Assembly (NCBI GenBank): GCA_905178155.1
Contig: CAJINV010000001.1
Span: 16,306,142-16,370,141 of the forward strand
Reading direction: 5' to 3'
Length of the DNA stretch: 64,000 nucleotides
DNA from: Amoebophrya sp. A120
Lineage: Eukaryota; Protista; Dinoflagellata
The position numbers were made by a program, and so were the translations under genes. The notes beneath the pieces were generated by a model, which saw only the letters and a program-made list of their open reading frames with translations, made no database searches and was not told the origin of the DNA. This document shows positions 1,828 through 55,147 of the stretch, one piece after another; position 1 is the stretch's first letter, and each line of letters opens with the position of its first letter.

Positions 1828-4128
1828 ATGCTGTTGCAGCTGCTTTCGGATGTGAGCGGCATTCGAGTAGTAGCCCGAAAGGACAGCCGCATTCCCCGGG
1901 TAGAACTTGATTGGATCCGGTTCTGTACCTTCAGCGTCTCCGTTGCCGGTACCTGCTGGCTCGTCACGAAGCTGTACGAGCTGCAGATCAAGCACCACCA
2001 CGACAGAAATGCAAAGGTTCCTCGCGCCGTGGCGGATGCACCGACAGCTGTCGTCACACGACAGGGAGGTGCAGTTGCACCCACCGCGACACCCCCGGCG
2101 CTTCCAATAGGCCAAGAACAATCTCTTGCAACACCAGGTACTTTCGACAGCAGGAGCAACGGCGACAGCGTCGAAACGACACCCCAGCCGCTGGTGCGCA
2201 CGTATTCCGTGGGCGTCGATCACTTGATGGTACCGTTGTCGCAGTTTTTGGATCTAGTCAAAAACCGCGCCGTGACCGCGGTGGCGTACCAAACGGGTTT
2301 TGATGCAGCCGGAGCACCGGGCGGGCAACCGCGACAACAGCAGCTCACGTTCGAGGTCAGCAGCGACGCCAGTAGGGCAGTGCTGTCAGACTTTTCACGC
2401 TGCCCGCCCGTGACGACAAACGAAATGGGTGCTACTAAAACCGCCACTTCCGCGACCTTCTCGACAACCTTGGTCCCTGGCAGCGAAACGGCGGTATTTA
2501 CCGCCATCCAGCAGGCCGGAATACCGCACGCGGTGGTGCCGGCCGGGATAGCTGCGCAGTCGAGAATGTTGGGCTCCTACAAAAACGACCACATGGGCAC
2601 TGGTACATCCGCCGATAGCGCAGCTGCAACGCTTGCTCCTCAGCATCATGCCGGCGGAAGCTACAGCTCGTCGCACGGAGGTGGTATGGCCGCCGCGACA
2701 CGGCACGGCAAGAACCGGGACATCGTGGCCGCCCTGACTGTGGACTTGATCACGCTAGCGGTGACGCTGGCCTTCTGCTACTGGTACTACGACTACAACC
2801 CTTTCAACAGCTCTGGCTCCTCCTCCGACAATGTGTGGAACAAGGTTATGTCTGCAGACGCGAAGGACGGCGGTGCATCCACCATGGTGCGGTTCCAGGA
2901 CGTCGCGGGGTTCCGCAAGCAGAAGCAAGAGCTGCAGGAGGTGATCGCCTACATTAAGAACCCTGCTTCTTTCCACATGCTCGGCGCCGTGCCGCCGCTC
3001 GGGACGCTGCTCGTGGGCCCGCCGGGGTGCGGCAAGACGCTGCTGGCGCGGGCGGTCGCGACGGAGGCCGGTGTACCCTTTTTCCACGCCAGCGCGAGCA
3101 GCTTCGTGGAGAAATACGTGGGCATCGGGGCGGCGCGGGTGCGGAAATTCTTCCAGAACGCGCAGAACTACCCGGCCAGCATCCTCTTCCTCGACGAGCT
3201 AGAGGCGGTTGGGAGTCGGGACGACCAGCTGGGCAGCGGCGAATACTGCCAGACCATTTCCCAGTTGCTCGTCGAGCTCGACGGGATGCACCTGAAGCGC
3301 ACTTCTTCTACCAACAAGAATGGGACAGAACAACAACTTCCAGCGCAAAATCCAAACGCTGACGGCCAGATGATCGGCGACGCGACCAAAGACAGCTCAG
3401 GTTCTTCTGAGACCACGACCACTTCTGTAGCCGTTGATAAGAACGCTCATTTCTTCGTGTTTCTCGCGGCCACGAATCGGTACCACACCCTGGATCCCGC
3501 GCTGCTGCGGCCCGGGAGGCTCGACCGCGTGGTGCGCATCAAGTACCCGTCGCAGACCACACGCGCCGAGTGCGTCCGCATCCACGCGCAGGGGAAGCTG
3601 ATGGACCCGAAATTGCCCGCTAATTACACGGACGTGTTCGCGCGCCAGTGTCGGGGGCGGTCCTGCGCCGAGATCGCGCACGTGCTCAACGAGGCGGCGT
3701 TGCTCGCGGCCCGGCGCCGCAGCAGTTGTGTCGCCTGGACGGACTTGCTTGCCGCGCTTCAGCAGTGTGTGCGGCGAAATCGGGACTTCGAGCAGGTGGG
3801 CGTCAGCAGCGACGAAGAGGACGACGTCCCGTTCGAGGATACCGCCGAGGAGGTGCCAGATTCCCGGTCTGGGCAACGCGCGACGCCGCTATCAACCTTC
3901 CTTAGCACGCCGCCGGTGGAGGGGGACGGCGGGCTCAACGGCGGCCCGGCAGAGGGTCCTCCGAGCGGACGCGGTGCGGGGCCCAGGAGAGGTGGAAGTC
4001 TAGGGGGAAGCGGCAATCGTGGCGGGAACAATCCCGACGCCATGCGCCTCCTCGGCCAACTCCTCATCGATTCCGCGAACGCAGGGGAGCGCGTGATAAA
4101 TCCGACGATCTTAAACAGCAAACAGTGA
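1828..4128 (+). CDS. FtsH-like membrane AAA+ ATPase lacking the M41 peptidase domain
   Basis: Two hydrophobic segments, then RFQDVAG, Walker A GPPGCGKT, pore loop YVG, Walker B FLDELE, SRH ATNR..LDPALLRPGRLDR and lid NEAALLAAR. No HEXXH motif. 5' exon(s) uncertain. Confidence 0.85.
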   Translation: MLLQLLSDVSGIRVVARKDSRIPRVELDWIRFCTFSVSVAGTCWLVTKLYELQIKHHHDRNAKVPRAVADAPTAVVTRQGGAVAPTATPPALPIGQEQSLATPGTFDSRSNGDSVETTPQPLVRTYSVGVDHLMVPLSQFLDLVKNRAVTAVAYQTGFDAAGAPGGQPRQQQLTFEVSSDASRAVLSDFSRCPPVTTNEMGATKTATSATFSTTLVPGSETAVFTAIQQAGIPHAVVPAGIAAQSRMLGSYKNDHMGTGTSADSAAATLAPQHHAGGSYSSSHGGGMAAATRHGKNRDIVAALTVDLITLAVTLAFCYWYYDYNPFNSSGSSSDNVWNKVMSADAKDGGASTMVRFQDVAGFRKQKQELQEVIAYIKNPASFHMLGAVPPLGTLLVGPPGCGKTLLARAVATEAGVPFFHASASSFVEKYVGIGAARVRKFFQNAQNYPASILFLDELEAVGSRDDQLGSGEYCQTISQLLVELDGMHLKRTSSTNKNGTEQQLPAQNPNADGQMIGDATKDSSGSSETTTTSVAVDKNAHFFVFLAATNRYHTLDPALLRPGRLDRVVRIKYPSQTTRAECVRIHAQGKLMDPKLPANYTDVFARQCRGRSCAEIAHVLNEAALLAARRRSSCVAWTDLLAALQQCVRRNRDFEQVGVSSDEEDDVPFEDTAEEVPDSRSGQRATPLSTFLSTPPVEGDGGLNGGPAEGPPSGRGAGPRRGGSLGGSGNRGGNNPDAMRLLGQLLIDSANAGERVINPTILNSKQ

Positions 4129-4558
4129 CATTTACAACTTCGGACATCCTGGTCATGTGGACAACGACAAAGTTAGCGATGCGCTTCACGACAAAGCTCA
4201 CTAGGCGCGAAGCTCTAGTTTTCCAACTCCGAAGATGCAGCAAAGTTTTCCATTTTGATTTTACCTGTTCACTTGTGCTGCCACGAAAAGTGCTTCGCTA
4301 CAACTGACTGCAAGCAGTATTGATTCTTTGAGAGCGCAGAGTGTTTTTGCGGTCATGTTGCAGAGAGAGACTCACTTCAAGCCCGTTTTTGTAAGGAATG
4401 CGCGTTGTTAGTTCTTGGCAAGTTCTACTTTCTGGCGGTGGCGGTCTCGTTCTTAGGACATGATCATTAATAAAGCTCTTTTGAGATTATAAATTCCGGT
4501 ACGGTACCACACCATCTGAATAAATGCTCAGAAATATCAATCATCAATAGCTGAAGCC

Positions 4559-6032: not shown

Positions 6033-8159
6033 ATGGAAGATGCCCTAGCGTCAGTGGTGAGCAGAGTGACGGACACGGCGATCGTATTGCTGCTTGTTTC
6101 TTGGCGTATTTGGTTCGTCCTTGAATGTGTTCTGGGTCCGGCGACTGCCCTAGCCCACCGAGCTGTTGCTCCCGGCGGCGATGTTGCCGCTGCGCGTGAC
6201 GAGCGTACAGCTTTCTTCACGATGTGGACGGGCCATGCTGGAGCCGAAATAGCCCAAAGCGGAGCCGCTGCACAGGGGGGCTCGCTCGTATGATGTACTT
6301 GATTTTTGTCCACTGCGATTATGTGGAAAAGCCATTCGCTCGGGCAAGCAGCGGACAGCGTGACGGAGCCTTTGGTGAAGACATTGAAAAGAACTTGACA
6401 AAGATCTAGCCAGTTGAGGAACGAAAGGAAACCTGCGCACGCAAGAATGTTGCAGAAAACGAAGCGCATTTTCTTGTATTGGCAACAAGGCTGGGAGCAC
6501 GCGCCGCCTCTGGTACAGGACTGCCGCCGATCGTGGGAATTGCACAATACGCCCTCGTGGGAGATTGTGTTGCTCTCCGGTGCAAACGTGTCCTCGATCG
6601 TGGATCTCGACGCTGTCATCGTGCAAGGCGAGGGAGCAGCTGTTCCACAGTCTGACAAAGCGGAGGAGGGGTATGCAAAGGAAGATGAAGAGACTGCCGA
6701 TACAACTTCAGCTGCAGCGAGAGCATCCGTACGTGGAGAAAACCACTTCAGCGAAACCCCGATGTCCTCATTGGCGCTCGATTCTAGGTATTGGCAAGCA
6801 GCGCCGGATAGCGTCCGGGAGCACCCGTACCGGAGAAGGGATGCAGAGAAAAACTTTTTTCTGCCCGTGGCCACCACCGACCAAGAGAGGCTGGAGTACT
6901 TGTCGACATTTATCTTCACGGACGCCCTACGCTTGGAACTCCTAGCTCTCGATAAAGACTTCATGCCGGCTCCTGCATCGCCTGCACCACTCACCAGAAA
7001 AACAAATGGTCAAGTAGAAAGCGGCCGGCATGGTGCCGAACCTTCGTCGAGCGACAGCGAAGAAGTGTGGAATGTGTGGGCCGATGCCACCATGCTCTGT
7101 CTGCGGCCGCTGGATGACTGGCTCTTTCGAGACGCTAGCGTGCTTGAGAACCCAGCGGGGTTCTGGCTCTACGCCGGCTTGGAGCACGTGATCTATCCAC
7201 AATTTGATCGACATCCTCCACACGAACAACAAGGGACGACTTCTACCGCCAGTGCAGACGATACAGTGGACGACTCCGCTGCAAGCGCCGTTTCCTCTCA
7301 CCACGCTGTCTCCATCCACCAGCCCGCAATTTGGTTTCTGATTGCGCGGAGCGGCAGCGACATGCTGCGGCGCTGGCGGGACGCGTACCGACGGCGCTGG
7401 GCTCGGCGGCGGCGCGAAGAGTTTGAGATCCGGGTGGACCCGCTGTCCCAGCAGGTGTTTTGGACCGCCTCCGACCACGCGAGCCGCTTTTTCAAGGGCC
7501 AGCACCCGGCCACAACGGAGGTGGACACTTACTTTTTGTTTGAGCAACAGACCGGCCTCCGAGCGATGGACCAAGTCGCCCGGGCCCTTTTCGACGACGT
7601 AATTCTACCGGTAGACGTCACCACGGAAAGCGGTGCGCAAGTGCAAAAGGAAGTAGTCACGAATTCGTTCAACATCTTCAGCCTGGACCAGTCTTTCCTC
7701 GACCTGCTTTCTGAGGATCGGATGTTCTTCCATTACTGGGCCGACGTGGTGCTGCCGCTGACAGCATCGATCGACTCATCCGGTGCCAACATGCTGATGA
7801 CGGACGAGTTTTCTCTGTGGTCGGACGCTACTGCTGCGGAGGCGGCACCCCGGAAGAAGAACTTCGTGTCTCGAATCGTGAACGGGGACACGCATGTTCT
7901 GAAAATGAGCTTGAAAAATCGTCCCACGGACATGACCGAAGAAAAGTTTCGTAGTGACACCTTCGGTGGCCTCGCTCTGCGGCTCGCAATGTTGAATACG
8001 TCAGGAGATGACCCCACAACTAGCGGGGAAGATCAGGAAAAGATCGTGCGCAACATAGTAGACAAAGTAGAGCTATTTGAGAATTTTCTTCCGGAGGCTT
8101 TCGCGAAAAGTACTGAGTTTTGTTCTCCTTTTGGAGTTGCAGGTCCGATGGTCGCTTGA
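6033..8159 (+). CDS. capsular-polysaccharide-synthesis-type (Caps_synth/GT32-like) glycosyltransferase
   Basis: Motifs IFLYWQQGWEHAPPLVQDCRRSW, TDALRLELL, VWADAT..CLRPLDDWL and WFLIA. A signal-anchor exon 6033-6287 joins via a phase-0 GT-AG intron 6288-6413. Confidence 0.75.
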
Positions 8160-11430: not shown

Positions 11431-12776
11431 ATGAAACTGCGAATTTTTCCGCGGTCCCGCCCCGGGCGGCTGAACTTCGCCATTTTCCAGTGGATCACCT
11501 ACATGCAACCATGGTTGATCACGCAAACGCATGCGTGCATCCCCTGGTGCAGCCTGAACCAGGTGCACAAGTTCTGGATGGATACCATGTGGATGAAGTC
11601 ACTGCTCATGGACAGCCCGGTATTTTGAATCGTGTTATTTCTTTCAACGTTAGCTTCTACATAACCTTCTCCTTCGGTCTACTCGCATTCTTTGTACGTA
11701 CTCACAGTAAACATCGATAAACTATGTGAACCTGTTGTAGAAGTGACAAAATACAGTAAAGTCACACTTGATCTCAAATCCATCTCGATTATTATCCCAG
11801 TTATTTTTATAAGCTGCGGGGGGCGGGGGTCCCCGGGGGTCTGCGGGGGTCTGCGGGGCTCGATTCATTCTAAAGGAGAAAAAAACAAAAGATNTTCTGC
11901 AAAAAAGTTCTCGAATGCAAAACGCGAATCAAAAAGGACCCCCGCAGACCCCCGCGCTGCGGAAACTGCCCCCCTTATAAAAAAGGCTGTTATCCATCGT
12001 GCGACAGAGCCTGAAGGGTGGTTCTGGTTCGTTTCGGATGGTGGAGAGTTTACAGCGGGACGCATTGAAGGCGATGATCAACGGGTTTATCGAGCGAAGC
12101 ATCGACCCCTACGACCCCGGCGACGGTTTTGCCACCATGTTCGTGTACGACATCAAGAACGACTACTCGAGTTACGACTGCTTTCTGATGGTGAACTGGG
12201 GCGAGAAGCGGAGCGGCCTCCGGATCGGTGACCTGCGCGCCAACGAGCTGGGCACCCACGGCTCGCTCGCCCGCGTGTGGAACTACCCCCCCGGCGAGGA
12301 AAACTGTCTCACCTGGGTCACGGACCTGAGCACCTTCAACACCGTGCAGGCCGCCGTGACCGCCGCAAACAATGTGCGAAACGACAACTGGGCCTTCTTT
12401 CGCAAAGTAGCCAGTTACACGAAAGCCGCAATCGGATCCGCTGCAGTCTTGACCATGTCATCCATCCCACTCGAGTATGTGTCTGTCCTTCTTCCTTTTT
12501 GCTCTGCATGCTACTTGTTTTCAGCGAAACATACTAAATTCGGTACAAACAAAATCCCAGTAGACAATCTTCGATGCTCCAAAATTGAATAATCCCAGAC
12601 GCGGTGTGAACTTACCGAGCTACGTGAAACTGGAGGTGGTGGACACGCGACTGATTCAGACCACCTTCAGCGGCAACGGACCTAGTGGAGCCTACCGCAT
12701 GATGGACAACCTTCCGGAGGACGAGCGAATTCTCATTTTGGAAGACATCGAGAAGCAAGAGCTCTGGGACGTATAG
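11431..12776 (+). CDS. conserved-looking hypothetical protein (3 exons), possibly mitochondrial
   Basis: Strong codon bias. Exon 11431-11619, GT-AG intron 11620-12007, exon from 12008, second intron (probably 12475-12598, GTATGT donor, phase 2), last exon ends 12776. Basic N-terminus. Function not recognised. Confidence 0.6.
11804..11983. mobile_element. MITE-like inverted-repeat element inside an intron
   Basis: TTTTTATAAG (11804-11813) / CTTATAAAAA (11974-11983) terminal inverted repeats, plus internal GGGGGTCTGCGGGGGTC / GACCCCCGCAGACCCCC inverted arms around an A-rich core that contains an N. Confidence 0.55.
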
Positions 12777-43486: not shown

Positions 43487-44387
43487 GCACTACCTTGTCC
43501 TTGGCATGGATTTCTTAGAAAAACAAACCACGAGAATTGGCAACGGTTGTGTGGAAATATGTGTGCTTCAAGAAGATCGACGCTATGCATTATTTCCGTC
43601 TTATTTCCTACATTACGCTAGTGATGATCATTTTCGTTTTACCGCCACGGTTCTGCCGCCTCCGCTAGCAGTTCTCGCAAGTACACTCTTTTGTTCTCCT
43701 CCGCCAAGCTACACGCAAACTTTCACTACAAACATGTTGATCGCGAGAAGAGTGTCTGTGGACAAGAACGCCAGCAGCTTCATCAAAGAGGCTTTCGCAC
43801 AACTGACAGTTGAGCTGGAAACGTCAAAATAGACTCAAATCGTGAAAGCATCAGAGAAGTCGGGAGAGAGAATGCGAGGCTTTACCCGTGGCCCAGCGCA
43901 ATTTCTTACCAGCAAACTTTCAGATCGGGAACTTCTCATATGATCCTGTACTCGCTGAAGTAGCTGGCTAAATGTAATAGCGGTTGGTTGCGGTGCAGGA
44001 CTAGATTGATGACATTAACCTCGGTAAGCCCCGAGACAAGCGTGGCTTCTGTATGCTAGCTTGGCCGCGCCGGTGACGGAGTGCTTTACAAAAGTCACGA
44101 GCCGCTGCTGCCCCGACCGAGCCGCTCCTCGCTTCCAAGAAGACGTTTGGATTTTTACAGCTGTTCTTCCAGTCCGTGGACCGGCACGCTGCGTAAGACG
44201 GTCTCCTGTCGCTTCTTCACGTCAACACCGCATAATTGAGGCCACGGCAACATCAGCGGGTTTTGTGCGACATCTGTTGGGTGCGAGTTCTAAGTTCTAA
44301 GTTTGATAAAAGATAAGTCCTCGTGTCCGTCCGTCTTGCTTCTACCGTCTTCTGCACGGCGTTTTGGATCCGTCCCGGCCCTGCACC

Positions 44388-47300
44388 ATGGCACCCCAAC
44401 TCGAGGTTCCGTCGTCCGCCTTTTTTCCGGGACAACAACAGATTACACCGATTAACGATAAATGCGACGGTGAAAACACCGAGGACGAGGACATGGACCA
44501 TACGCCCGCGAAGCAACTGTCGGCCGGTATTGCCCCGCAGGTGGGGATGCGAATGGTAGGCACGATTGTGCGGGAGATCTTTCACAAGGTTAAGGACAAG
44601 GATGGCAACGTGATCCGGGTCGGGGACAGCAAGGGGTACGGATTCATTCGTCCGCATAAGCAACTCAGCCTGGAGAACTTCCTCGGGCACAAAACAGGGG
44701 GTCGCTTCACCAACTTTGTCAGTGTGTCACCGGATTTTATTGCGGAACTGTCGGAGTTGTCGAGGGAGTTCAAATCCAAGAATGACCTGTTTGTGCACAA
44801 GCGGTCCGTCGTTGAGGGCGACTGGGGTGTGGGCTGTGTGGCCGAATTCACTGTTGCACCGGGCCGGGAGGAGGGCAAGCTTGAGGCGCGCATGGTGCAA
44901 ATCCTGGCCGTTGATCCCCGCTGCCCGACTCTGGATGCGCTGGCGAAGAAGGTTCAGTGGCTCGAGGGGCAGTTAAAGTTGTCCAACAAAAAATCCAACG
45001 ACGCGGTGGCGACCGCTGAAGCCGCAAGGGTGACCTCGGCGCAGGCAGCGGCCAAAGTGCATCAGGTCGAAACCTCCACCAGCCAGCGCCTGGGCAAGCT
45101 CGAAGCCGGGGTAGAGGAGTCCGCACAGGTGGCGCGCGACACGAAGAGAGACGTTGAGGCGGTGAAAAAGGAGGTTGTTACCCAGCAGTCGACCCTGGCG
45201 GAGATCCTGTTGCATGTCAAGCAGAACTCCGCTGCATCGGCCCAGCCGGCGAAGCGCAATGAGGATGAGGATGAGGGTATCGCTAGCGCTCCTTCGTGCG
45301 AACAGTCTTCATCTTCGTGTTCATCTTCGTCTTCATCATCACAGCTCTGTCTCAACAACTTAAATTCCCACATCTCATCATCACAGGTCATTCCGGCGAT
45401 GACAAGAGACGTAAGATGGCCGGCGCTGGAGCTGCTGAAGCGACAAACCCATAGCAGCAGAGCGGGTGATCAGGTTGCTGCACCACGGCGGCTTTTTGCT
45501 GGTGCTGCAGCCGGAGATGATGAGTTTGATGAAAATCTTGATGTGAACAATTTTGACAACGAGGATTTTGAACAACAGCAACCAGATGACAAAGAATCAT
45601 CTTGTTTGTCCTGTCGACTGTCGGAACTGTCGGTAGCCGTACAGTCAGATTTTGTTGATAGCCCGCAAAACGAAAACCAAACCACGAACGGCAATCCTTA
45701 CATCTGTGAAACGAGTGATTTGAGCCAGCAGCCAGCCTCTGCAATTGTTGAAAGGGCCTCTGCAGCTGGTCCGTCGCACACCAGGCAGTTGGTGTCTCAC
45801 GCGTTCAACGCTTTGTGTTCACTAGGGCGTCACGACTCTGTTATCGCGGTGTCAGATACCTCTCCAAAAACACCTGATCGACGCTGGCCCGCGACATCTA
45901 CCGTCCCCGCAGTGAACGAGGCACAGTGCGACCCGTTTGTGACACCGCCCCCGCGCACAAGGACTATCTGGGACCCAGGCATCAGAACAGCCGAAAAGGA
46001 TACAACAGCTCGCAACTCTCGCCGGATCAGACGGAGCAGGAGGAAGGGCTTCTTCGCAAACATCATCACGGTCAACTTTCAGGGGAAACACCAGTCCAAG
46101 CAGCGCGAGCAAATACTCCAGCACTTTTCCGAAGTCCATAGCTTGGGCGGGCCCCACATCGACGCGATACTTGGGACGGAGTTCTCGTACGATGCGAATG
46201 CTGCTGATGGACCGCCCGACAGCTTCTCCACTACCCTAGACACGGACGGGAGATGGTTGACCCTGTGGATTTGTGGCGCGGCGATAATAGTATACAACAA
46301 GCAGTGGATCAAGCAGATTCTTCGTGGCAACTTCCGGGTACATTCACAGCCACGGATTATAGCACTGCGCCTCCCGTTCTTAGCCCTTTGCAGCGCGTAC
46401 GCCCCAGCTGATGGAAGTAAGGCCGGCCAGGGAGTGTGTTTGGCGTTTGACATCTTCCTTGGCAACCTCGAGATTGTACTTGGCAAAATCCGTAAGCCGC
46501 TACGTACCGGATCGACCCCACTGCTCGTGAAGCTGAATACCGCAGCGAAACCCCCTGGGCTTCCAGACCCTACGTTCGACGCCTCGGCCAACTCGTCGCT
46601 CCGCTGCCCAGTTTTTGTTGGGGGTGACAATCTTGGCACCGTTGGGTCTCCGGACTCCAGGAATAGACGAGGCTATTGTGGGGGACAGACAGCCGGCCAG
46701 TTTGGGCTTGATGATACGAATGGGCGCGGCGTTGAAGTTTTGCGATTTGGCGATGACTACGGGCTTGCAAATGTCAATGTGCTTTACGACCACCGGGAAT
46801 CGAAGAAATTTGTTCAGTGGCGTCCGAGTTTGCTCTGGCATGCGCAGGATCGGGCAACGCATTACTCCAAGCGGATTCTCAGGTGGCGGGAGCTCGATCA
46901 GTTCTACGTAACGAGCTGCGACGTTCCGAGCATCACTGTTTGCGCCACCGTTACGTCGCCGCTGGGTCTTGACCACCGTCACAAGTTTCTCCGCGCATTC
47001 ATCGAGTTTTCTTATCAGCGGAGGAACATCGACCGTAGGGCGAAACAGGACCGGACGGAGGTTGACGCTTCTGCACCGTTGTGGCGTGCCACCCCTTCAG
47101 CAAAACACCAGTTTTCCGCCGCTGTTGTGCAGGCGTTGTGCCCAGAACCGGACTCGGCCGCAGACGTTAGCTCCCCTGTTGCCGACCCGACCCCGCAGAC
47201 TCCGCTTGATATCCCCATATCCCGCATCCCAGAGGCTCTTGTTGCTGCGCGGGGTATTTTAGCGGGGTCCGCACAGCAGGAGCTGAACCGCTACAACCGG

Positions 47301-50300
47301 AGCCACGACTACAAGAAACGGAGACGCTTCGACCTGCGCATCAAGATCCTACGCAAGGAAGTTCGGCGCCTCGGCGCCGCCCTCGACCCAGACGATGACG
47401 CAGCGGGCGCAGTTTATCAGGAAAAGTGTGAGCTTTTAGCCAGTGTCATTGCAGAGCGTGTGGAATTCCGCAAGACCCAGTCCTCCGACTTCAACACGGA
47501 CTACCACACCAGGGCGCAGCGCACGCTGAAGCGGAGGCTTGCAAAGGGTGTTGATTTCGATCCTGAGACTGCGGCGAAGCACTTCCAAGCCGTCAGTGTC
47601 TCGCCCGGGGTTCCTAACGTTGAGCTTGTTCGCAGCGCTGTGCAGCCCCTTGACGACACCAGCAGGGAAACACTTTTAAAGGAGTTCTCCATCGAGGAGT
47701 GCATGTCCGCCGCCAAGCGTCGCCGCAACAGCCTACAAGTAGACGTCGTTGGCGATTCCATTGCGCTGTACAAAGCTTTGAACGCCGGGGCCTGGGCAGT
47801 GATTGTCCGGATCCTGAACCACCACCGGCTGACCAACTTTGTGGGGCTCCTTGGCGAAAACCCGCAGGACCAGCAAGTTCTTGCCGCCACTGTCCGGCTG
47901 CTCTACAAGGGAAAAGGCGCCGAGACTAGTCTTGATAATTTTCGTGGCATCGTGAATACCTCGATTATTGTTAAAGTGCTGACGGCTGTTTTAACAGATC
48001 GGCTTGATGCCTGCCTTCGTTCCTGTGGTTTTCTTTCTGGGCGCCAGCATGGGTTTCGCAGGCACTACCAAGTGGACGAAGCGGTTTTTTTGGCGCGTCG
48101 GGCGTGTGAGGATGCCCTGCGTGTTTTCGGGAAGGGGAGCAGTGTCGGCAATTTGTCGCTGCTGCTCCTTCTTGACATCAGGAAAGCCTACCCCAGTTTC
48201 CCGTGGAAGATCTGGAAGGGAATCATCCGCGGGCTCGGTGTTGAGGACTCTTTTTTCGACTCCCTCTTCAGCATCGTCCACCGCCGAACTAGCTACCAGG
48301 TTCTCTGTGGTGACAAACCAAGCGACCCGTTTTTTTTAGACAGCGGCTTCGGAGAGGGACAGATAAGCTCTCCCAGTTCGTACTCCCTCGCCTACGAGTG
48401 TGTTCTACGTGTTGTGCGACAAGTGTTGACCGAGAGGCTTTCCAGATCTTCGTCGCTGCTTCTTTGGTCCCCGCGTGCGCCGTTTGCTTTCGTTCCAGGA
48501 GTGAAGCCGGGTACGGGGTTGCGATCGGTATTTGACCTCCTACACCCGGGGTCGGCCTCCCTTGTCGTCGACAAGATGACCGAGTGGGAATTCGCCGACG
48601 ATACGCTGATCCCGGCCCTCCTTCTACATTGTCTGATAAATTTTTTCGGTTGGGAAGCAACTGCGGATGAGGCTGCTGTAGCGGCGAACCGGGGGAAGTT
48701 TGATTTTGTCCTTGCGTCAAACCCAGAAGTCTCTGCTTTCGTCCGGTATCTCGGGGCGTTTCTGGATCGCCGCGAGGATTCCTCGCGCAGAATTGGAAAG
48801 ATGCTTGCGGCACTTGGCGAAGTTGACTGTGTCCCTGCCGCGGGGGACACGGTCACTGATGTGCGGATAAACATCATGTCGCGGGTGCGCAGCAGGGGGC
48901 TCTTTGCGATTGGGACGAGGGAGATTACGCAACAGGAAATAAAATCGCATCAGGTCATCGAGAATCAGGCTCTTCTGCGCCTTGCCGGCCAACCGCGTTG
49001 GTCGTTGCGCCGCTTCCACCTGCCGCTGGCCCGCCTTCGTCGGTGGTACCACATGGACCCAGCGTGCGCGATGATCCGCTACTCACAGTGTTCGCACGTC
49101 GGCCACATAGTGCGGTCCGATCCTGGTCGACTCTCTCGGAAAGCGTTTTTTGGAATGTTGACCTTCGGCCTGCCATGTCTTGAAGACCACTACTTGCACA
49201 GGCGGACCGGGCAGATTTCTCTCTGGGACAACGTGCGTGATTCCTTGAAGCTTGTATGCGGTGAGCGGTCTGACACGCAATACCTGACCCTGATGCAGTC
49301 CCGGCCGCATTTCAACGCCTTGCTTTATGAGCTTCGCATTTTTTTGACGATTGAAGACTACCTCACTGATGACGGCGTCACTGATCAGCAGCTTGCCGAC
49401 GCTCGGAAGTGGTGGGCTGAGCACTTTGCGAAGCGCCAGAACTCGCTGCCGATTGATGTCAATTGCCGCTCTGGATTTTCGTGGTTTAGCCAAGACGGCC
49501 GATCATTCACCGATGAAGTGCTGGCCAAGATTCATGTCGAGACTACTGTTCCCGGCTCTACCAACTTCTCGCGGTGCAGAAGATGCAGTGTTGATGCCTG
49601 CGACAAGTGGGACACACGTTTTACCCCGAAGTTCCTGAACGACTACGCCTGCACGCCCTACATTCCTTCCCCCCGACCTGAGACACGGTGGAAGACTGCC
49701 GAGTTCCGCGATATCAGGCAAGTTGTTGGGCATGACAGTGGTGTCTCCATTCATTGCGAGAACCCGGCGCCCGCGGTTGGGGATGCCAGTGGTGCTGACC
49801 TGTCCTTCTTCCGCCGCGATGACATCGTGAACACCGTCTACGAGAAAGTGCGCGCGGTGCACGCTGAAAAGCCTCCTGACCCCCCGAAGAAGTTGCCGCC
49901 GCTCACGAAGTTAGTGCAGTCCATCGAAGTTGAGCAGTTCCGTGACGTATTGTTCCCCCCCACAGACCAGTCTGGCGACGCATCTTCCTCCAACCTCCGC
50001 TTTGCCTCAAGCACCCCTCCGGACGACCATCTGCAGCTGACGAGGTACCTTGAGGAGCAGCATGCTGCGATTTGCCGTGAGATTGAGGAGTATCCGTTTT
50101 TCATCACTCATCGCTACGACCATGGGAGTAAAGCGATCGCATCGGTTCGCTGCGTTTGCCAGGAGTGCCGCGACTTTGTCCTGCGCAAGCGAGCGAAGGG
50201 GCCACGGGGTAGAGCTGCGTCCGAGTCCTCTTCCGTTTCGATTTCGGAGTCTGCAGATGGCGATGGTGTTGACGCAGGTAACGAGTCTGATGATGAATTT

Positions 50301-50999
50301 GTGTTGGAGATAGGGCGTGGCGCTGGGGATGCTCTTGCTCTGTCCCCCGACCATGAGGTTCCGGAAGACGATGACGAAGACCCGACGACCCTCAAGATGC
50401 TTGTCCCCGTTGATCAGCAGCGGTTGTTCGCCAATTTGAAGACTGCGTTCCGACACATGCGATACAAGAAGCAGAAGCAGGCAGAGGCGGACTTCAGTGC
50501 ATTAATTCCGGCCCCCCCCAAGAAACCCAAGGAAACTACGACCAGTGCGAAACCTGCGCGGGCCCTCGACGTTGACGCCCCTCCGCAGCGGACCAAGAAG
50601 CTGATGCCGTCGCAAGCCCTTGACTCGGAGCTGCATCCTGAGCAGCGCGTCGTCGATGTTTCTGCCGGCAGCGCCCACACTGTCGACGAGGACCCGCCCA
50701 TGCAGCTCCCCAAGGGCATCACGTGGTGCACGTCCATGCCTGGAGCTGCGTCGCGTGCTTTTGGCGGGGTGCTTCTCGTTAGGGTGACGAACGCGAAGCT
50801 GCCCGATGGGTCTACGCACCACGTATCCCGACACATCGATCCAGCCGCGTACGGGAACAGTGCGTCGCTCGCGATTGAAGCGGCAATTGCACTACGAACC
50901 CAGATCACACTTGACCCTGCCCCCTTCATTGCGAAAACGAAGCGGATGCGAAAGCCGAAAAAGAAGAAAAGTGGTGGTGGTGTGGACGTTCGTAGGTAG
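44388..50999 (+). CDS. retrotransposon polyprotein: cold-shock domain - coiled coil - AP endonuclease - reverse transcriptase - split Zn finger - AP2-like domain
   Basis: CSD KGYGFI/DLFVH (~44547-44905). APE NIITVNFQG, SAYAP, VGGDN, LDQF, LDH (~46050-47000). RT LLYKGKG..NFRGI, QHGFR, LLDIRKAY, FADD (48591), YLG (48747). CxCxxC...F.....RH. C-terminal LPKGITW...YG...A...AIALR. Confidence 0.92.
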   Translation: MAPQLEVPSSAFFPGQQQITPINDKCDGENTEDEDMDHTPAKQLSAGIAPQVGMRMVGTIVREIFHKVKDKDGNVIRVGDSKGYGFIRPHKQLSLENFLGHKTGGRFTNFVSVSPDFIAELSELSREFKSKNDLFVHKRSVVEGDWGVGCVAEFTVAPGREEGKLEARMVQILAVDPRCPTLDALAKKVQWLEGQLKLSNKKSNDAVATAEAARVTSAQAAAKVHQVETSTSQRLGKLEAGVEESAQVARDTKRDVEAVKKEVVTQQSTLAEILLHVKQNSAASAQPAKRNEDEDEGIASAPSCEQSSSSCSSSSSSSQLCLNNLNSHISSSQVIPAMTRDVRWPALELLKRQTHSSRAGDQVAAPRRLFAGAAAGDDEFDENLDVNNFDNEDFEQQQPDDKESSCLSCRLSELSVAVQSDFVDSPQNENQTTNGNPYICETSDLSQQPASAIVERASAAGPSHTRQLVSHAFNALCSLGRHDSVIAVSDTSPKTPDRRWPATSTVPAVNEAQCDPFVTPPPRTRTIWDPGIRTAEKDTTARNSRRIRRSRRKGFFANIITVNFQGKHQSKQREQILQHFSEVHSLGGPHIDAILGTEFSYDANAADGPPDSFSTTLDTDGRWLTLWICGAAIIVYNKQWIKQILRGNFRVHSQPRIIALRLPFLALCSAYAPADGSKAGQGVCLAFDIFLGNLEIVLGKIRKPLRTGSTPLLVKLNTAAKPPGLPDPTFDASANSSLRCPVFVGGDNLGTVGSPDSRNRRGYCGGQTAGQFGLDDTNGRGVEVLRFGDDYGLANVNVLYDHRESKKFVQWRPSLLWHAQDRATHYSKRILRWRELDQFYVTSCDVPSITVCATVTSPLGLDHRHKFLRAFIEFSYQRRNIDRRAKQDRTEVDASAPLWRATPSAKHQFSAAVVQALCPEPDSAADVSSPVADPTPQTPLDIPISRIPEALVAARGILAGSAQQELNRYNRSHDYKKRRRFDLRIKILRKEVRRLGAALDPDDDAAGAVYQEKCELLASVIAERVEFRKTQSSDFNTDYHTRAQRTLKRRLAKGVDFDPETAAKHFQAVSVSPGVPNVELVRSAVQPLDDTSRETLLKEFSIEECMSAAKRRRNSLQVDVVGDSIALYKALNAGAWAVIVRILNHHRLTNFVGLLGENPQDQQVLAATVRLLYKGKGAETSLDNFRGIVNTSIIVKVLTAVLTDRLDACLRSCGFLSGRQHGFRRHYQVDEAVFLARRACEDALRVFGKGSSVGNLSLLLLLDIRKAYPSFPWKIWKGIIRGLGVEDSFFDSLFSIVHRRTSYQVLCGDKPSDPFFLDSGFGEGQISSPSSYSLAYECVLRVVRQVLTERLSRSSSLLLWSPRAPFAFVPGVKPGTGLRSVFDLLHPGSASLVVDKMTEWEFADDTLIPALLLHCLINFFGWEATADEAAVAANRGKFDFVLASNPEVSAFVRYLGAFLDRREDSSRRIGKMLAALGEVDCVPAAGDTVTDVRINIMSRVRSRGLFAIGTREITQQEIKSHQVIENQALLRLAGQPRWSLRRFHLPLARLRRWYHMDPACAMIRYSQCSHVGHIVRSDPGRLSRKAFFGMLTFGLPCLEDHYLHRRTGQISLWDNVRDSLKLVCGERSDTQYLTLMQSRPHFNALLYELRIFLTIEDYLTDDGVTDQQLADARKWWAEHFAKRQNSLPIDVNCRSGFSWFSQDGRSFTDEVLAKIHVETTVPGSTNFSRCRRCSVDACDKWDTRFTPKFLNDYACTPYIPSPRPETRWKTAEFRDIRQVVGHDSGVSIHCENPAPAVGDASGADLSFFRRDDIVNTVYEKVRAVHAEKPPDPPKKLPPLTKLVQSIEVEQFRDVLFPPTDQSGDASSSNLRFASSTPPDDHLQLTRYLEEQHAAICREIEEYPFFITHRYDHGSKAIASVRCVCQECRDFVLRKRAKGPRGRAASESSSVSISESADGDGVDAGNESDDEFVLEIGRGAGDALALSPDHEVPEDDDEDPTTLKMLVPVDQQRLFANLKTAFRHMRYKKQKQAEADFSALIPAPPKKPKETTTSAKPARALDVDAPPQRTKKLMPSQALDSELHPEQRVVDVSAGSAHTVDEDPPMQLPKGITWCTSMPGAASRAFGGVLLVRVTNAKLPDGSTHHVSRHIDPAAYGNSASLAIEAAIALRTQITLDPAPFIAKTKRMRKPKKKKSGGGVDVRR

Positions 51000-52100
51000 T
51001 GTGTACGTTAGTAGCTAGCGTTGTAGCCTGGGGGAGTGCGTTTTTTAGTTAGAAGTCCGCTGATGTTTCTGCCTGTGTGCAGTTGCACTTGAAAAAACTA
51101 TTTGCAGCTACAAAAATAATAAAAAACACAAAAAAAAAACCGTAACTTTCTAGTAGTGCAGTCTCTCTGCCTCTCTACAGCAAGGTAAAAGTCAAACTAT
51201 CTGTGTTTGGCTTTCTTTTTTCTTTTACCTTTCTTTTTCTCAGTTGAGAGCTTTGTGAGTCCGCAACACGATGGTGTGCTGATGAGTGACGAGTGACGTC
51301 GTGTTTTGTCTCTCTTGGTAACACCGTTGTTGATGATCTTATGATGCTATTTATTACACGAATGCTTGGTTTAAAGTTTTACCTGATTTCCATTCTAAAC
51401 TTGGTCGCCGGGAAGGGACCGAGGTACGTGTTAAAGGCTTCGCGCTTTGTAGTTAAAGTCTTACAAGCTCTGAGGATCCATCGTGCTCGCCTTGTCCCGA
51501 TGCTATGGTGGAAAAACAGACTCACTAACGAGAGCGAAAATCCAAAAAAGCTGTTGTTTTCCATGATCTCACACGTATCGCCTTGTCCCCGTCTAAAACT
51601 GCAGTTTTGATAGTTCAGGTAGTAGAAAGTGCGTGAGTTTTTTTTCTGCGAAAAGACCAATCCTACGTAGACGGGAACGTGACGACTTCGACAAATCACG
51701 ACTTGTAGCCGGTTTGAGGGTTTTCACATGACGAAGACCATTATTCTGACCTATTGCCGTGTAGTTTTTTTTTTGATTGAAATCCAAAATCTGAAAGCTT
51801 AGTTTTGTTTTAGCTCCCCCAGGCCCGCTCCTCGGAGCATAGTTTTTTCAAACCTTTCCAATGTAGCTCCTCGGAGCATAGTCTTCTCGCCCATTCCAGC
51901 TCAGCTCTTCGGAGCCTATTCTTTTAGTCCTCTCTAGTCTGCAAAAGGGTTTAGTTAATTCTGTTTCAGCTCCAAACTTCTGACAAACGCAAATCTGTTT
52001 TACGGCCGACGTGGTGGTTAGGATTGCCTGACTGCTGCGTTGAGCCCAGCTTGTGTGACGGCGTCACGTGGGCTGACACCTCTGATCTGATCTGATCATC
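51000..52100 (+). ncRNA. structured 3' UTR / RNA domain of the retrotransposon
   Basis: Several long-range inverted complements (11-13 bp, perfect) and local hairpins whose G-U pairs only form on the + strand. Confidence 0.6.
51827..51920 (+). repeat. three tandem GCTC(C/T)TCGGAGC tetraloop-hairpin repeats, period 38-39 nt
   Basis: GCTCCTCGGAGCATAGT at 51827 and 51866; GCTCTTCGGAGCCTATT at 51904. Confidence 0.85.
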
Positions 52101-52296
52101 GGCGCTTGTTTCTTTCAGGCCACTTCTGAGTACTTGTGCAGCTAGAACTGCAAAAACTCTATTCGGAGCACCTAGACACTCGGCTTGCTGCAAGTGAGGA
52201 GAACAGGAAATTAGGCAAAGGACCTGCTAAGAAGCAGCTGCGCGGTTGTGTCCCCGAATAAGTAGACTCTCGTGGGCTGCCACCGCGTCGACGAAG

Positions 52297-54491
52297 ATGT
52301 CTTCGTTTCCTCGGAGGACAACCGGTGGGGTGCGGCGTTTCGCCGAGGATCCCAGTGCTATGGCACCGCCCGGCACGCGGCCCATTACCGTCGAGAACGC
52401 ATTCCCGGTCTTCTCCAGTGCGGAAGGATTACCACTCGACCGCGTCACTGTATCTTCGAACTCATTGCTTTTTGTGTTCAAGGCAAAAAGGGGAGATTCT
52501 CAAAAAGATTAGCGGTAGATTCACAACAGAGACCGAACCATCGAGATCGGCCGAATCTTTCTTCAATCTTTTTACAAGGCCGTATCAAAAAATTCAGGTA
52601 AGCAATACGGTTTTCGAGTTTTGGAGTTACGAGCAGCTGGAGCCGCTGAGCGCCGCCGTACTTGCGCGCCGGGTTGCCGCCCTGCAGGAGAAACTCCGCG
52701 ACTGTGGTTTCGTAGACCAGGGCGCGCCGCGAAGCCGCCAGACGGCTGATCTGACGCGATACCTGATCGTGAAACAGGCATTTCTCGCCTGTGAGGCCAA
52801 CCAAGTGAAAGCCACCGCTCGGGAAATCGCCAAGATGCTCCGCAGGTTCGGGTGTCCCGAGGCGTTTGTGATCGCCGAGACGCGGACACCGACCCCCGGT
52901 GTGAGCCAATCACAGCAACAACTTGGAGAACTTCAAGTGCCGCAGAGCCCGCGGTCCGCAAGATCTGATTCACCCGACGGGCATCGGGAGCATTTCACAC
53001 CAACGGGTAGCAAGAGCATTACTTTGTGAGGATTTATTCGTCGCACCTCTACATGGATATGGACATGCAAAAGTTGCAATTCCGTCCGAAGCGTGAGCGC
53101 AGGACAGCAGCTGTGGCTGTTTTTCTCCGGAAACGTTTTTTTCGAAAAATGCACATTAAATTCTAAATTAGGTGCTTATGGCGATCGGCGGGACGACATG
53201 AAATACGGCCACATGGAGGATACGAGGATGGAAGACGGGTTGGCGCGCGTGGTCGGCCACGGAAAGCGGCATGTTGAGGTTCCGGACCACATAAGACCCA
53301 AGGCCCGCTCCGTGGACGTGCAAGAGGAGAGAACAGGGTAAGGGCTTAGCTGGCAATCGATTGTGAATCAATTTTTCCACGAAATGCACGACTTAGAGTC
53401 CTCTCTACTTGCGTTTTTTCATACTCTTGACATTAAGTTTTTGCAGTGCGTCTGCCTCCAGTAATCGAAAAATGTATCGCATGACAGACGCCTAAGTCAA
53501 GCACTGGGGCACGACGATGACGGTGCTGCGGGCTACCCTAAACTGCGCGATCCGTCACCAAGAAACAAGCGCGCGGATCCTGTTTTGCGCAACGCCTCGC
53601 ATTTCAACGGCTGCGTTCTTGATCCGGGCAGACCAGAAGATCTCATGCGATCGGTACTTGCTTTGCTTACTCAACATTTTTGTGCTTTCGAGATTATCAC
53701 GCCGCGTCAATGGCAGATCTCCGGTAACACAATCTTTGTAGCTATGCCGAACACTCCATTTTTCCTGAACAGCGCATGAACTCGCAGTATGCGGACGCGC
53801 CTGAGAAAGTGTTCGGCGCGAGGCTAACCAACTCCGAGCAGCGAAAGCGCTACCACGCGCCAAGACCTAGCGACTACGTTGTCTTTCCCGCTGGAGAACC
53901 ACTATCGGGAGACGTCATTACGGAGCAGTACTTGAAGTCATTTTCTCGAATGCATTTTTACGGCTGACAGTGCGTACTTTTATCTTCTCTTCCATCAACG
54001 TGCGCTCATCTTCATCAACATCATTTGTTTGGGCGGGCTTTTACTTCAGAATGTAAATTTTGTGAAGCTGCGCTCATGGATCACTGAAAGGTGCCATCGG
54101 ACCGGTGAAGTGCGAACTTGGAAGGCTCCGTACGACGATCGAGTGGCCGGAACAACAAAAAAGTAGTAAGCTTTTTTTGCAGCTTCTGCAATTGCTAGCG
54201 TGCACGAATACACATCTAGTGATTTGCATGCCTACTTAGTTATCGAAATAGACACAACACTGCTTGAAGAGCACTTACTGTCTCAGTCTTCGAGCTTGCT
54301 TTTCCCATGGATACAGGCGGGTCCAGATGGACGACCACGCTCACTGCCTCGGCGTGTTTGAGACGGACGGAATAAAAAACGAGGCTATACCCGGGACCGG
54401 CCACGGACGCAAGTACATCGACCGCGTGTTGGGTCCTCAGCTCAAAACTGAGCGCGGACATCTCGCTTCCTTCCGCCCGCACCGTGGTTAA
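52297..54491 (+). CDS. multi-exon hypothetical protein with GHG(K/R)(R/K)H/Y..DH-type repeats
   Basis: Phase-compatible GT-AG introns 52450-52597, 53007-53171 and 53338-53487; later junctions are less certain. GHGKRHVEVPDH and GHGRKYIDR repeats. Confidence 0.55.
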
Positions 54492-55147
54492 CCTCGCTCG
54501 TGGAAGTAGTACTGCAACTACAGTACGACTTCTCAACGCGAAGATGACGCACGCACTCAGAGTCTAGCCTGGTGCTCGTCGTTTCCAAGAAACCAAAACA
54601 ATTAGAAAGATTTTGATTATAGATTTACATAAACGCAGTGTCGTTTGGTGGATCACCAAGCTATGCTTCGCGCCTAGGTCAATCTCTCGATGTTCTTCCC
54701 CACTGTCGTGTGTGCTCTTGCCGCGAGGCGGACCAAAATAGCAACTGCACCTCAGTGTGCCGTCGGAAATCTTGTTATCCCAGTATGCTTACATCAATGA
54801 GGGGACGAGGATTTTCTAGCCAGGCGCTGAATCAAACCGCGAGAGAAAGAAAAGGCAAAGCAGGGATTCATCCAGTACAGAGCGCCTAAATCTTTGACCG
54901 GAGAAGACAAAATTGCTGAGCGATGGAGTTACATGTGAAAAATTCTCGAGGAGGGCGAGGGTTACATACCCGCGCAAGTGCGATGGCATTCTGGTTTCTC
55001 GCCAATTGACGTTGTTGCACGTGGTTGTAATACAATGACTTTCGAAAACTAAATCTTCACAAGAAGGGTGCGAACATCAAAAAGTTCGCAGCTGTATGTT
55101 GTACTTGTGACAGGAGGTTGCCTCGTCACGACAAGCAGTTTTCTTCG

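Follow-up and report, generated by a model that had tools for sequence, protein, structure and literature searches.

What kind of mobile element would carry a cold-shock domain (CSD) and an AP2 domain on the same protein as an AP endonuclease (APE) and a reverse transcriptase (RT)? The question is raised by a locus of the marine parasitic dinoflagellate Amoebophrya sp. A120, within 64,000 nucleotides of contig CAJINV010000001.1 (GenBank assembly GCA_905178155.1, forward-strand positions 16,306,142–16,370,141), a stretch called the window here and used for all coordinates. An initial annotation of the window had read one stop-free open reading frame (ORF) as a retrotransposon without long terminal repeats (non-LTR) and of unusual architecture. 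We hold with good confidence that the element encoding this protein, P0001, is a single-ORF non-LTR retrotransposon of the APE type, complete or nearly so in length, that probably moves by target-primed reverse transcription, with a likely CSD and a coiled coil at its front, a putative zinc motif and a predicted AP2-like domain at its rear, and a lineage so far found only in Amoebophrya. Its classification as a non-LTR retrotransposon is carried by the APE endonuclease, the L1-like RT, the repeated 3′ ends and a (CTGAT)3 tail. The order of parts is a new domain architecture among APE-type long interspersed elements (LINEs), and the CSD-like and AP2-like additions would be new for LINEs if both calls hold.

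The enzyme core, the ends of the element and its copies

The features of the element are listed below by window coordinates and strand.

43864–44387, + strand: interval containing the 5′ end and the 5′ untranslated region (UTR)
44388–50999, + strand: single ORF from ATG to stop, encoding P0001 (2203 aa)
44550–44915, + strand: likely cold-shock-like domain, its RNP1 (aa 82–87) and RNP2 (aa 134–139) separated by an insertion of about 45 aa
44931–45239, + strand: coiled coil of about 100 aa (about aa 182–284)
45240–46050, + strand: Ser/Asp/Pro-rich linker, not conserved
46053–46991, + strand: APE endonuclease of the Exo/endo/phosphatase fold (aa 556–868)
47655–49547, + strand: non-LTR RT, thumb and downstream helical region
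within 48588–48602, + strand: FADD motif of the RT (aa 1402–1405)
50151–50459, + strand: split putative zinc-binding motif, made of CxCxxC, an acidic/Ser insertion of about 80 aa and F-x-H
50688–50936, + strand: predicted AP2-like domain (three strands and a helix); a Lys/Arg-rich tail runs on to 50996
51000–52097, + strand: 3′ UTR (about 1.1 kb), of which further copies occur in the genome
51827–51923: 38-bp tandem repeat within the 3′ UTR
52004–52075, + strand: terminal double hairpin with 19-bp and 13-bp stems and many G–U pairs
52082–52096, + strand: (CTGAT)3 tail marking the 3′ end, the sole such repeat in the window

The single stop-free frame is as first described, and an unbranched 4662-nt DNA contig spans 45770–50431 of it without differences; the description "intronless" derives from the open frame alone. 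Against Pfam, whole P0001 matched a sole entry, RVT_1, below threshold (E 0.014). The protein cut into nine pieces matched RVT_1 at E 8e-4, CSD at E 0.0095 over 19 aa, and coiled-coil entries weakly, and neither search returned an APE or an AP2 match. The endonuclease, which lies N-terminal to the RT, is identified by its N, E, Y, D, D and H motifs in a motif survey and by hhalign against ten outgroup Pfam-positive APE domains (98.8%, E 5e-17, 245 columns). The RT is identified by the Pfam match of its piece, by hhalign, by its place in a tree and by a family profile that aligns to human L1 ORF2p at E 3.5e-8. The coiled coil, APE and RT of the initial annotation are thereby backed by a predicted helix, by hhalign and by the family profile with Pfam, respectively, and the order CSD, coiled coil, APE, RT, zinc motif, AP2-like domain stands as proposed.

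The catalytic D-x-N of the APE reads D-N-x (46620–46637) in all eight family proteins that cover the site. By comparison, D-x-N is found in 24 other pattern-matching proteins among 157 scanned, a count in which proteins matching neither form do not figure. The conservation of D-N-x down to about 30% identity suggests a rearranged yet working site.

Both termini were re-placed. The spliced contig of the upstream gene reaches 43863, the unique DNA contig stops at 44339, and the 5′ end is placed between 43864 and about 44310. The 3′ end falls at about 52092–52097: the contig of unique flank begins at 52063 and so locates the branch near 52093. The bounds first given, 43940 and 52200, are therefore revised, the former having no support. 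No LTRs were seen, as a long direct repeat is absent, while a 3′ tail and, at the level of contig depth, a surplus of 3′ ends are present. The longest candidate for a target-site duplication (TSD), a 7-nt match, was judged to be chance, and a 5-nt repeat near 43942 and 52093 was rejected on the same ground.

Genomic coverage was taken, as summed contig depths that do not give copy numbers, from two DNA runs of a single sample, from which the assembly itself may have been built. Depth over the ORF body equals that of the flanks (43 versus 42, and 22 versus 25–27), then climbs toward the 3′ end through 61/31 and 166/107 to 471/267, reaching about 11 times the flanks over 51214–52060. Contig junctions lie at 50402, 50798 and 51960–51980, and unique flank resumes near 52093. 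This gradient and these junctions match the pattern expected of 5′-truncated LINE copies, and many 3′-end copies at 90–99% identity occur among the DNA contigs. At the RNA level, three raw runs gave 1, 1 and 0 reads over 16 kb, too few to test expression. Two spliced-contig runs of one sample covered the flanking genes and the 3′ UTR and hardly the ORF body, which is not taken as silence.

The 3′ UTR had been described as a folded RNA of about 1 kb, and the UTRs as highly structured. Folding of 51100–52095 was no better than that of shuffles (z –1.16, equalled by 4 of 20 shuffles); five UTR tiles (z –1.4 to +1.2) and three 5′ segments (z –1.1 to +1.6) likewise gave no unusual structure. The last 118 nt (51980–52097) reached z –3.78, equalled by none of 200 shuffles, on the + strand only (minus strand z –0.61), and the 118-nt tile from 52001 had the lowest z of 320 tiles in the window, nine of which reached –3. 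Structure is thus confined to the terminal double hairpin, and since the UTRs are not highly structured, the proposal that the CSD serves as an RNA chaperone for them is weakened. Several contigs join the element at 51960–51980 with unlike upstream sequence, and Rfam gave no match in the window. LINEs that recognise their own 3′ end are described with stem-loops and short tandem tails (PMC3747384), and the double hairpin is likely a signal recognised by the element protein.

Further observations concern copies and neighbours. Other copies skip 50977–51117, 51549–51772 or 51916–51973, and several join only at 51960–51980; the latter may be sub-families or partners resembling short interspersed elements (SINEs) that share just the terminal hairpins. 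Over 44310–45411, DNA contigs at about flank depth contain a second variant of the CSD and coiled-coil region (for example, eight differences over 45062–45155), with no matching variant over the APE–RT body; this variant may be a non-autonomous derivative with an internal deletion. A spliced contig of the downstream gene starts at 52004, within the hairpins, and adjoins a 908-nt contig near-identical to the 3′ UTR of the P0001 element itself (region 51130–54650); transcription of that gene may start within the element, and contigs cannot show starts. Elsewhere in the window, AAA ATPase, LCAT, GT47 and kinase genes (Pfam) with GT–AG introns neighbour the element, every ORF above 330 aa (1–64000) lies on the + strand, several without a Pfam match, and other strongly folding 118-nt tiles begin at 41201, 4601, 56601 and 23201.

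The N- and C-terminal domains

The CSD-like region contains published RNP1 and RNP2 patterns (PMC12787238) as exact matches and in order, an arrangement of which about 1e-6 pairs would be expected by chance. The Pfam CSD match is split because of the insertion of about 45 aa between the motifs. The region is also present in P0011, whose CSD-like region, coiled coil and APE follow the same layout in one frame, and in P0004, whose gene model begins inside the domain (32% identity over 57 aa) and holds CSD and APE pieces together; in P0002 it is weak, with the RNP2-like half only. A Pfam CSD match, under the cut-off, was obtained for two of four aligned family members. A profile search of the Protein Data Bank (PDB) and a plasmid tblastn search for the CSD returned nothing informative. 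On these motifs, aa 55–176 of P0001 are likely to form a true CSD. The family member at locus L001 has APE, RT, zinc motif and AP2-like domain without a CSD, and the CSD is optional in the family. The coiled coil behind it is modelled by AlphaFold as a continuous helix (predicted local distance difference test, pLDDT, 80–92), gives weak coiled-coil matches in Pfam, and occupies the same position in P0002, P0009 and P0011. The gene model of P0009 begins at the coiled coil and that of P0003 is fused to an unrelated gene, and the linkers that follow in relatives are unrelated to that of P0001. In P0078, from the sister group described below, aa 1–245 appear by eye to hold two tandem CSD-like repeats and a coiled coil ahead of APE–RT.

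At the rear, the split zinc finger of the initial annotation is borne out in sequence (CxCxxC at aa 1922–1927 and His 2023), with zinc binding as the presumed function. The three Cys and the His are present in all six family sequences covering the motif. In P0001 and P0006, where the motif is split, the Cys-to-His spacing is 96 and 111 aa, respectively; in P0003, P0005, P0013 and P0023, where it is contiguous, the distance is 14–20 aa.

The C-terminal domain is predicted as a three-stranded sheet packed on a C-terminal helix (strands at 11–14, 28–37 and 43–50, helix at 59–75; pLDDT 71) and is also present in P0005, P0006, P0013 and P0023. A sequence search with it returned family members and P0157, a near copy of the P0023 tail on another gene model. 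Exhaustive structural alignment of the model against 48,161 chains placed at the top 9g6k_LG (Z 6.0, root-mean-square deviation (rmsd) 4.1, 63 residues aligned), 9i05_Xn (Z 6.0, rmsd 3.4, 63 aligned), 9hqv_Yn (AP2IX-6; Z 5.6, rmsd 4.8, 62 aligned), 6sy0_A (Plasmodium SIP2, PfSIP2; Z 4.8, rmsd 2.5, 58 aligned) and 9fi8_HR (AP2IX-6; Z 4.1, rmsd 4.9, 62 aligned). Unrelated folds begin at Z 3.9, and the Tn916 and lambda integrase arms and plant AP2 score 3.4–3.5 among them. Judged from this model and its structural ranking, the domain is probably homologous to AP2. As for its role, which is the least sure part of our account, we lean slightly toward a Zn/AP2-like module that would bind target DNA; the element's RNA end would be a less favoured partner, and binding of neither is improbable.

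A series of results weighs against the reading of the element given at the outset. For the CSD, the Pfam match (E 0.0095, 16.2 bits) stays below the gathering cut-off of 27, the AlphaFold model of the region has pLDDT below 50 and an unreliable fold, and Foldseek with that model found nothing significant. In addition, members do not find each other in leave-one-out CSD profiles (best 4.5 bits), the strict RNP1 pattern occurs in P0001 alone of 157 proteins, L001 lacks both CSD and coiled coil, and P0078 has no Pfam CSD match. For the rear domain, AP2 was found by Pfam in none of five family domains, PHROGs gave nothing usable, a PDB sequence profile gave no match, and hhalign against five phage AP2 domains reached about 1%; this last negative is weak because the phage profile also misses ApiAP2 structures, reaching ApiAP2 entries only at E 0.35 and 1, with 6sy0 not among its matches. 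Foldseek returned nothing at E <0.001 (best probabilities 0.30 for 9i05_Xz and 0.51 for a Klosneuvirus HNH protein). The best Z of 6 lies in a range that the aligner calls common, so the evidence is the ranking and the Z itself is modest; of the five top chains, four come from the Toxoplasma mitoribosome and one is PfSIP2, and three are named ApiAP2, 9g6k_LG and 9i05_Xn being without a protein name. The gene models of P0002 and P0003 pass the RT and end without the AP2-like tail, and CSD and AP2-like domain occur together in P0001 alone, no relative showing both. For the core, L1 Asn147 contacts the scissile phosphate and the catalytic water (PMC8565326), and the family APE has no Asn at this position, so nicking may be altered. 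No TSD of at least 8 nt was found between 43750–44390 and 52070–52115, where the 5′ end is not fixed. Profile searches, which the initial annotation had named as a check on its two terminal calls, accordingly fail for AP2 and leave the CSD weak, below the curated threshold; what stands is the exact RNP1–RNP2 pair for the one and the structural ranking for the other.

Relatives and comparison with known elements

Relatives were collected with a HMMER scan of 1.84 billion representatives using the APE–RT core, which gave 807 proteins at E ≤0.001, eight of them at E <1e-30, the best 150 of the 807 being examined; two word-seeded searches yielded P0002–P0004. Identity to P0001 ranges from 30 to 65%. 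Source labels were read for 24 proteins. In the set made up of the 12 top-scoring matches and P0003, P0013 and P0023, the 11 proteins that carry a name all belong to Amoebophrya AT5.2, A25 or A120: P0002, P0003, P0009, P0011 and P0023 to AT5.2, P0004, P0007 and P0012 to A120, and P0006, P0008 and P0010 to neighbouring A25 gene models. In P0005, P0006, P0013 and P0023 the RT thumb is succeeded by the zinc motif and the AP2-like tail, and P0005 is encoded by L001, an independent genomic locus at which APE to AP2-like domain lie in one frame. Viral contigs gave no relative among 22 pattern matches, and metagenome contigs gave two loci from 151 matches, of which L002 is a distant ordinary LINE fragment.

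An RT tree was built from 85 of 146 RT-matching proteins (at least 400 aa extracted), midpoint-rooted and without named reference elements. The four family RTs included fall on one side of a branch with an SH-aLRT (Shimodaira–Hasegawa-like approximate likelihood ratio test) value of 100. The family adjoins a sister group of 17 rows (SH-aLRT 99), in which four of seven looked-up proteins, and P0012, are from Amoebophrya. The lineage is possibly a separate new clade, for which a tree of this composition offers no placement in a known one.

Several observations concern these relatives. The sister proteins P0015, P0017, P0019, P0043 and P0062 represent long single-ORF APE–RT elements, a lineage mostly of Amoebophrya, with another C-terminus bearing several Cys/His motifs, have no AP2-like match and mostly keep D-x-N. 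In the distant P0095, an RNase H-like segment appears by eye to lie between APE and RT (about aa 400–550), an odd order. The 3′ UTR of L001 has no homology to that of the P0001 element, and L001 has hairpins of its own at about 12330–12570 (rough doublet shuffle); directly 5′ of the L001 element, the 3′ part of an upstream 763-aa gene is apparently duplicated (1875–4166 and 6130–6420).

The thumb region of the P0001 family presumably resembles that of RTE elements. The RTE clade (RTE-1, SR3, BovB) is also similar in having one main ORF with APE then RT (PMC1291365, PMC3747384) and a tail of short tandem repeats, (CTGAT)3 fitting the tetramer/pentamer type without being A-rich. By comparison, RTE ORFs of 922–1066 aa and elements of 3.2–3.9 kb (PMC1291365) stand against 2203 aa and about 8 kb here, the RTE 3′ UTR is short against 1.1 kb (PMC1291365), SR3 has TSDs of 10–12 bp where none was found for the P0001 element, and the CSD-like, coiled-coil, zinc and AP2-like parts and the D-N-x motif are extra to P0001. 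With LINE-1, besides the alignment of its RT to L1 ORF2p, P0001 shares an RNA-binding domain beside a coiled coil, as in type II ORF1p (coiled coil, RRM and C-terminal domain; PMC4120745). These parts are fused in one ORF in P0001, the CSD-like domain precedes the coil whereas the RRM follows it, the element has no poly(A) tail and the C-terminal metal motif differs. In the portion available of the survey of ORF1 types I–V, CSD is not included among them and the word "cold" does not occur (PMC4120745).

The two terminal domains have parallels outside LINEs. The AP2/ApiAP2 family, which includes ApiAP2 proteins, phage HNH–AP2 endonucleases and the arm-binding domains of the Tn916 and lambda integrases, shares the predicted three-strand and helix fold, with ApiAP2 as best matches, and attachment to a mobile-element nuclease, as in P0001, is typical of it (PMC4117751). 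The P0001 domain differs in having no sequence-profile match and in being attached to an APE–RT retrotransposon protein, a combination for which literature searches turned up no published case. Dinoflagellate cold-shock proteins share the RNP1 and RNP2 motifs. Dinoflagellates have many CSDs, which favour single-stranded nucleic acid (PMC12787238), and a host source of the P0001 CSD is therefore plausible. The insertion of about 45 aa between the motifs sets P0001 apart, as does fusion to a coiled coil, APE and RT, which is not in Table 3 of that source (PMC12787238).

Proposed mechanism, alternatives and implications

By analogy with known LINE biology, the element protein would bind the RNA that encodes it through the terminal double hairpin and the (CTGAT)n tail, the APE would nick the target, and the RT would copy from the tail by target-primed reverse transcription, with frequent early stops of copying giving the surplus of 3′ fragments. 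The CSD and coiled coil may act as a fused stand-in for ORF1p, providing single-stranded RNA binding and self-association, an optional part that L001 lacks. The Zn/AP2-like module would grip nucleic acid, either target DNA or the RNA end, during integration; of these steps we are least sure of this one.

Within the same element, the AP2-like domain could instead bind the element's own RNA end at the terminal hairpins and not target DNA, an alternative that we regard as possible and rather doubtful. Among the five best structural matches, all but PfSIP2 are Toxoplasma mitoribosome chains, mitochondrial AP2 proteins bind the 3′ and 5′ ends of rRNA fragments (PMC11652630), and a conserved terminal hairpin exists. 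However, the Z gap to the DNA-binding PfSIP2 is about 1 and the rmsd of SIP2 is lower, those mitochondrial proteins touch rRNA mostly via extensions and not the canonical AP2 surface (PMC11742926), and AP2 in mobile elements is otherwise tied to endonucleases and integrases (PMC4117751). It is unlikely that the LINE core is true and the terminal domains are lineage-specific small beta domains merely resembling CSD and AP2. Every curated-threshold profile test fails, and folds of three strands and a helix are common, with Z 3.2–3.9 for dsRBD and for ribosome hibernation factors; against this stand the RNP1–RNP2 pair with its low chance expectation, the filling of the top ranks by ApiAP2-type chains and the weakness of the phage AP2 negative.

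The core itself was also questioned. That the endonuclease is inactive or repurposed, with integration at existing breaks or an immobile element possibly kept as a host gene, would fit D-N-x in place of D-x-N, the lack of a TSD and the single-copy depth of the ORF body. We consider this quite improbable: all eight proteins, with identities as low as about 30%, share D-N-x while keeping the other catalytic motifs, a pattern that speaks for selection on a functional site; many 3′-end copies are 1–10% diverged; and relatives occur as broken gene models at loci unrelated to each other. That host CSD and AP2 genes were joined to an ordinary LINE by a single in-frame fusion event or by mis-assembly is largely refuted and very improbable. 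The DNA graph does branch at about 44310–45800 and past 50400, and the assembly may itself derive from these DNA runs. However, the front recurs in P0011 (CSD-like region, coil and APE in one frame) and P0004, the rear recurs behind the RT thumb in P0005, P0006, P0013 and P0023, and at L001, an independent locus, one frame runs from APE to the AP2-like domain. The termini therefore recur in diverged relatives, which answers the concern of the initial annotation about a chimeric assembly or a one-off.

We therefore retain the single-ORF, APE-type retrotransposon with additional terminal domains. A bolder version, which we put forward tentatively and think rather unlikely to hold in full, would make it an unnamed syndinian LINE clade in which ORF1p is replaced by a fused host-derived cold-shock/coiled-coil module, the APE active site is rewired and a true ApiAP2-type domain steers integration. 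No paper was found that joins a non-LTR retrotransposon, an AP2 domain and a cold shock domain, in a search judged partly by title that had Repbase, Dfam and most subscription papers outside it; non-LTR elements in Amoebophrya are mentioned without domain detail in the parts available of PMC7789003 and PMC12130899.

Standard annotation misses elements of this type, and the database entries for relatives are gene models that lack a name or are chimeric. The finding would add two nucleic-acid-binding modules to the LINE toolkit, and would show a LINE lineage acquiring domains prominent in its host group, CSD in dinoflagellates and ApiAP2 in Myzozoa. Tests of APE catalysis could use the conserved D-N-x as a natural variant, and the short stretch of 3′ hairpin and tail is a candidate for a small RNA signal. 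Invasion by a mobile element is one option stated for the still open origin of ApiAP2 (PMC4117751), and an AP2-like domain on a myzozoan retrotransposon makes a mobile-element origin testable by phylogeny. If a steering ApiAP2-type domain is indeed present, LINEs would count as a newly recognised vehicle for AP2 in Myzozoa, and ApiAP2 regulators may have spread by way of them.

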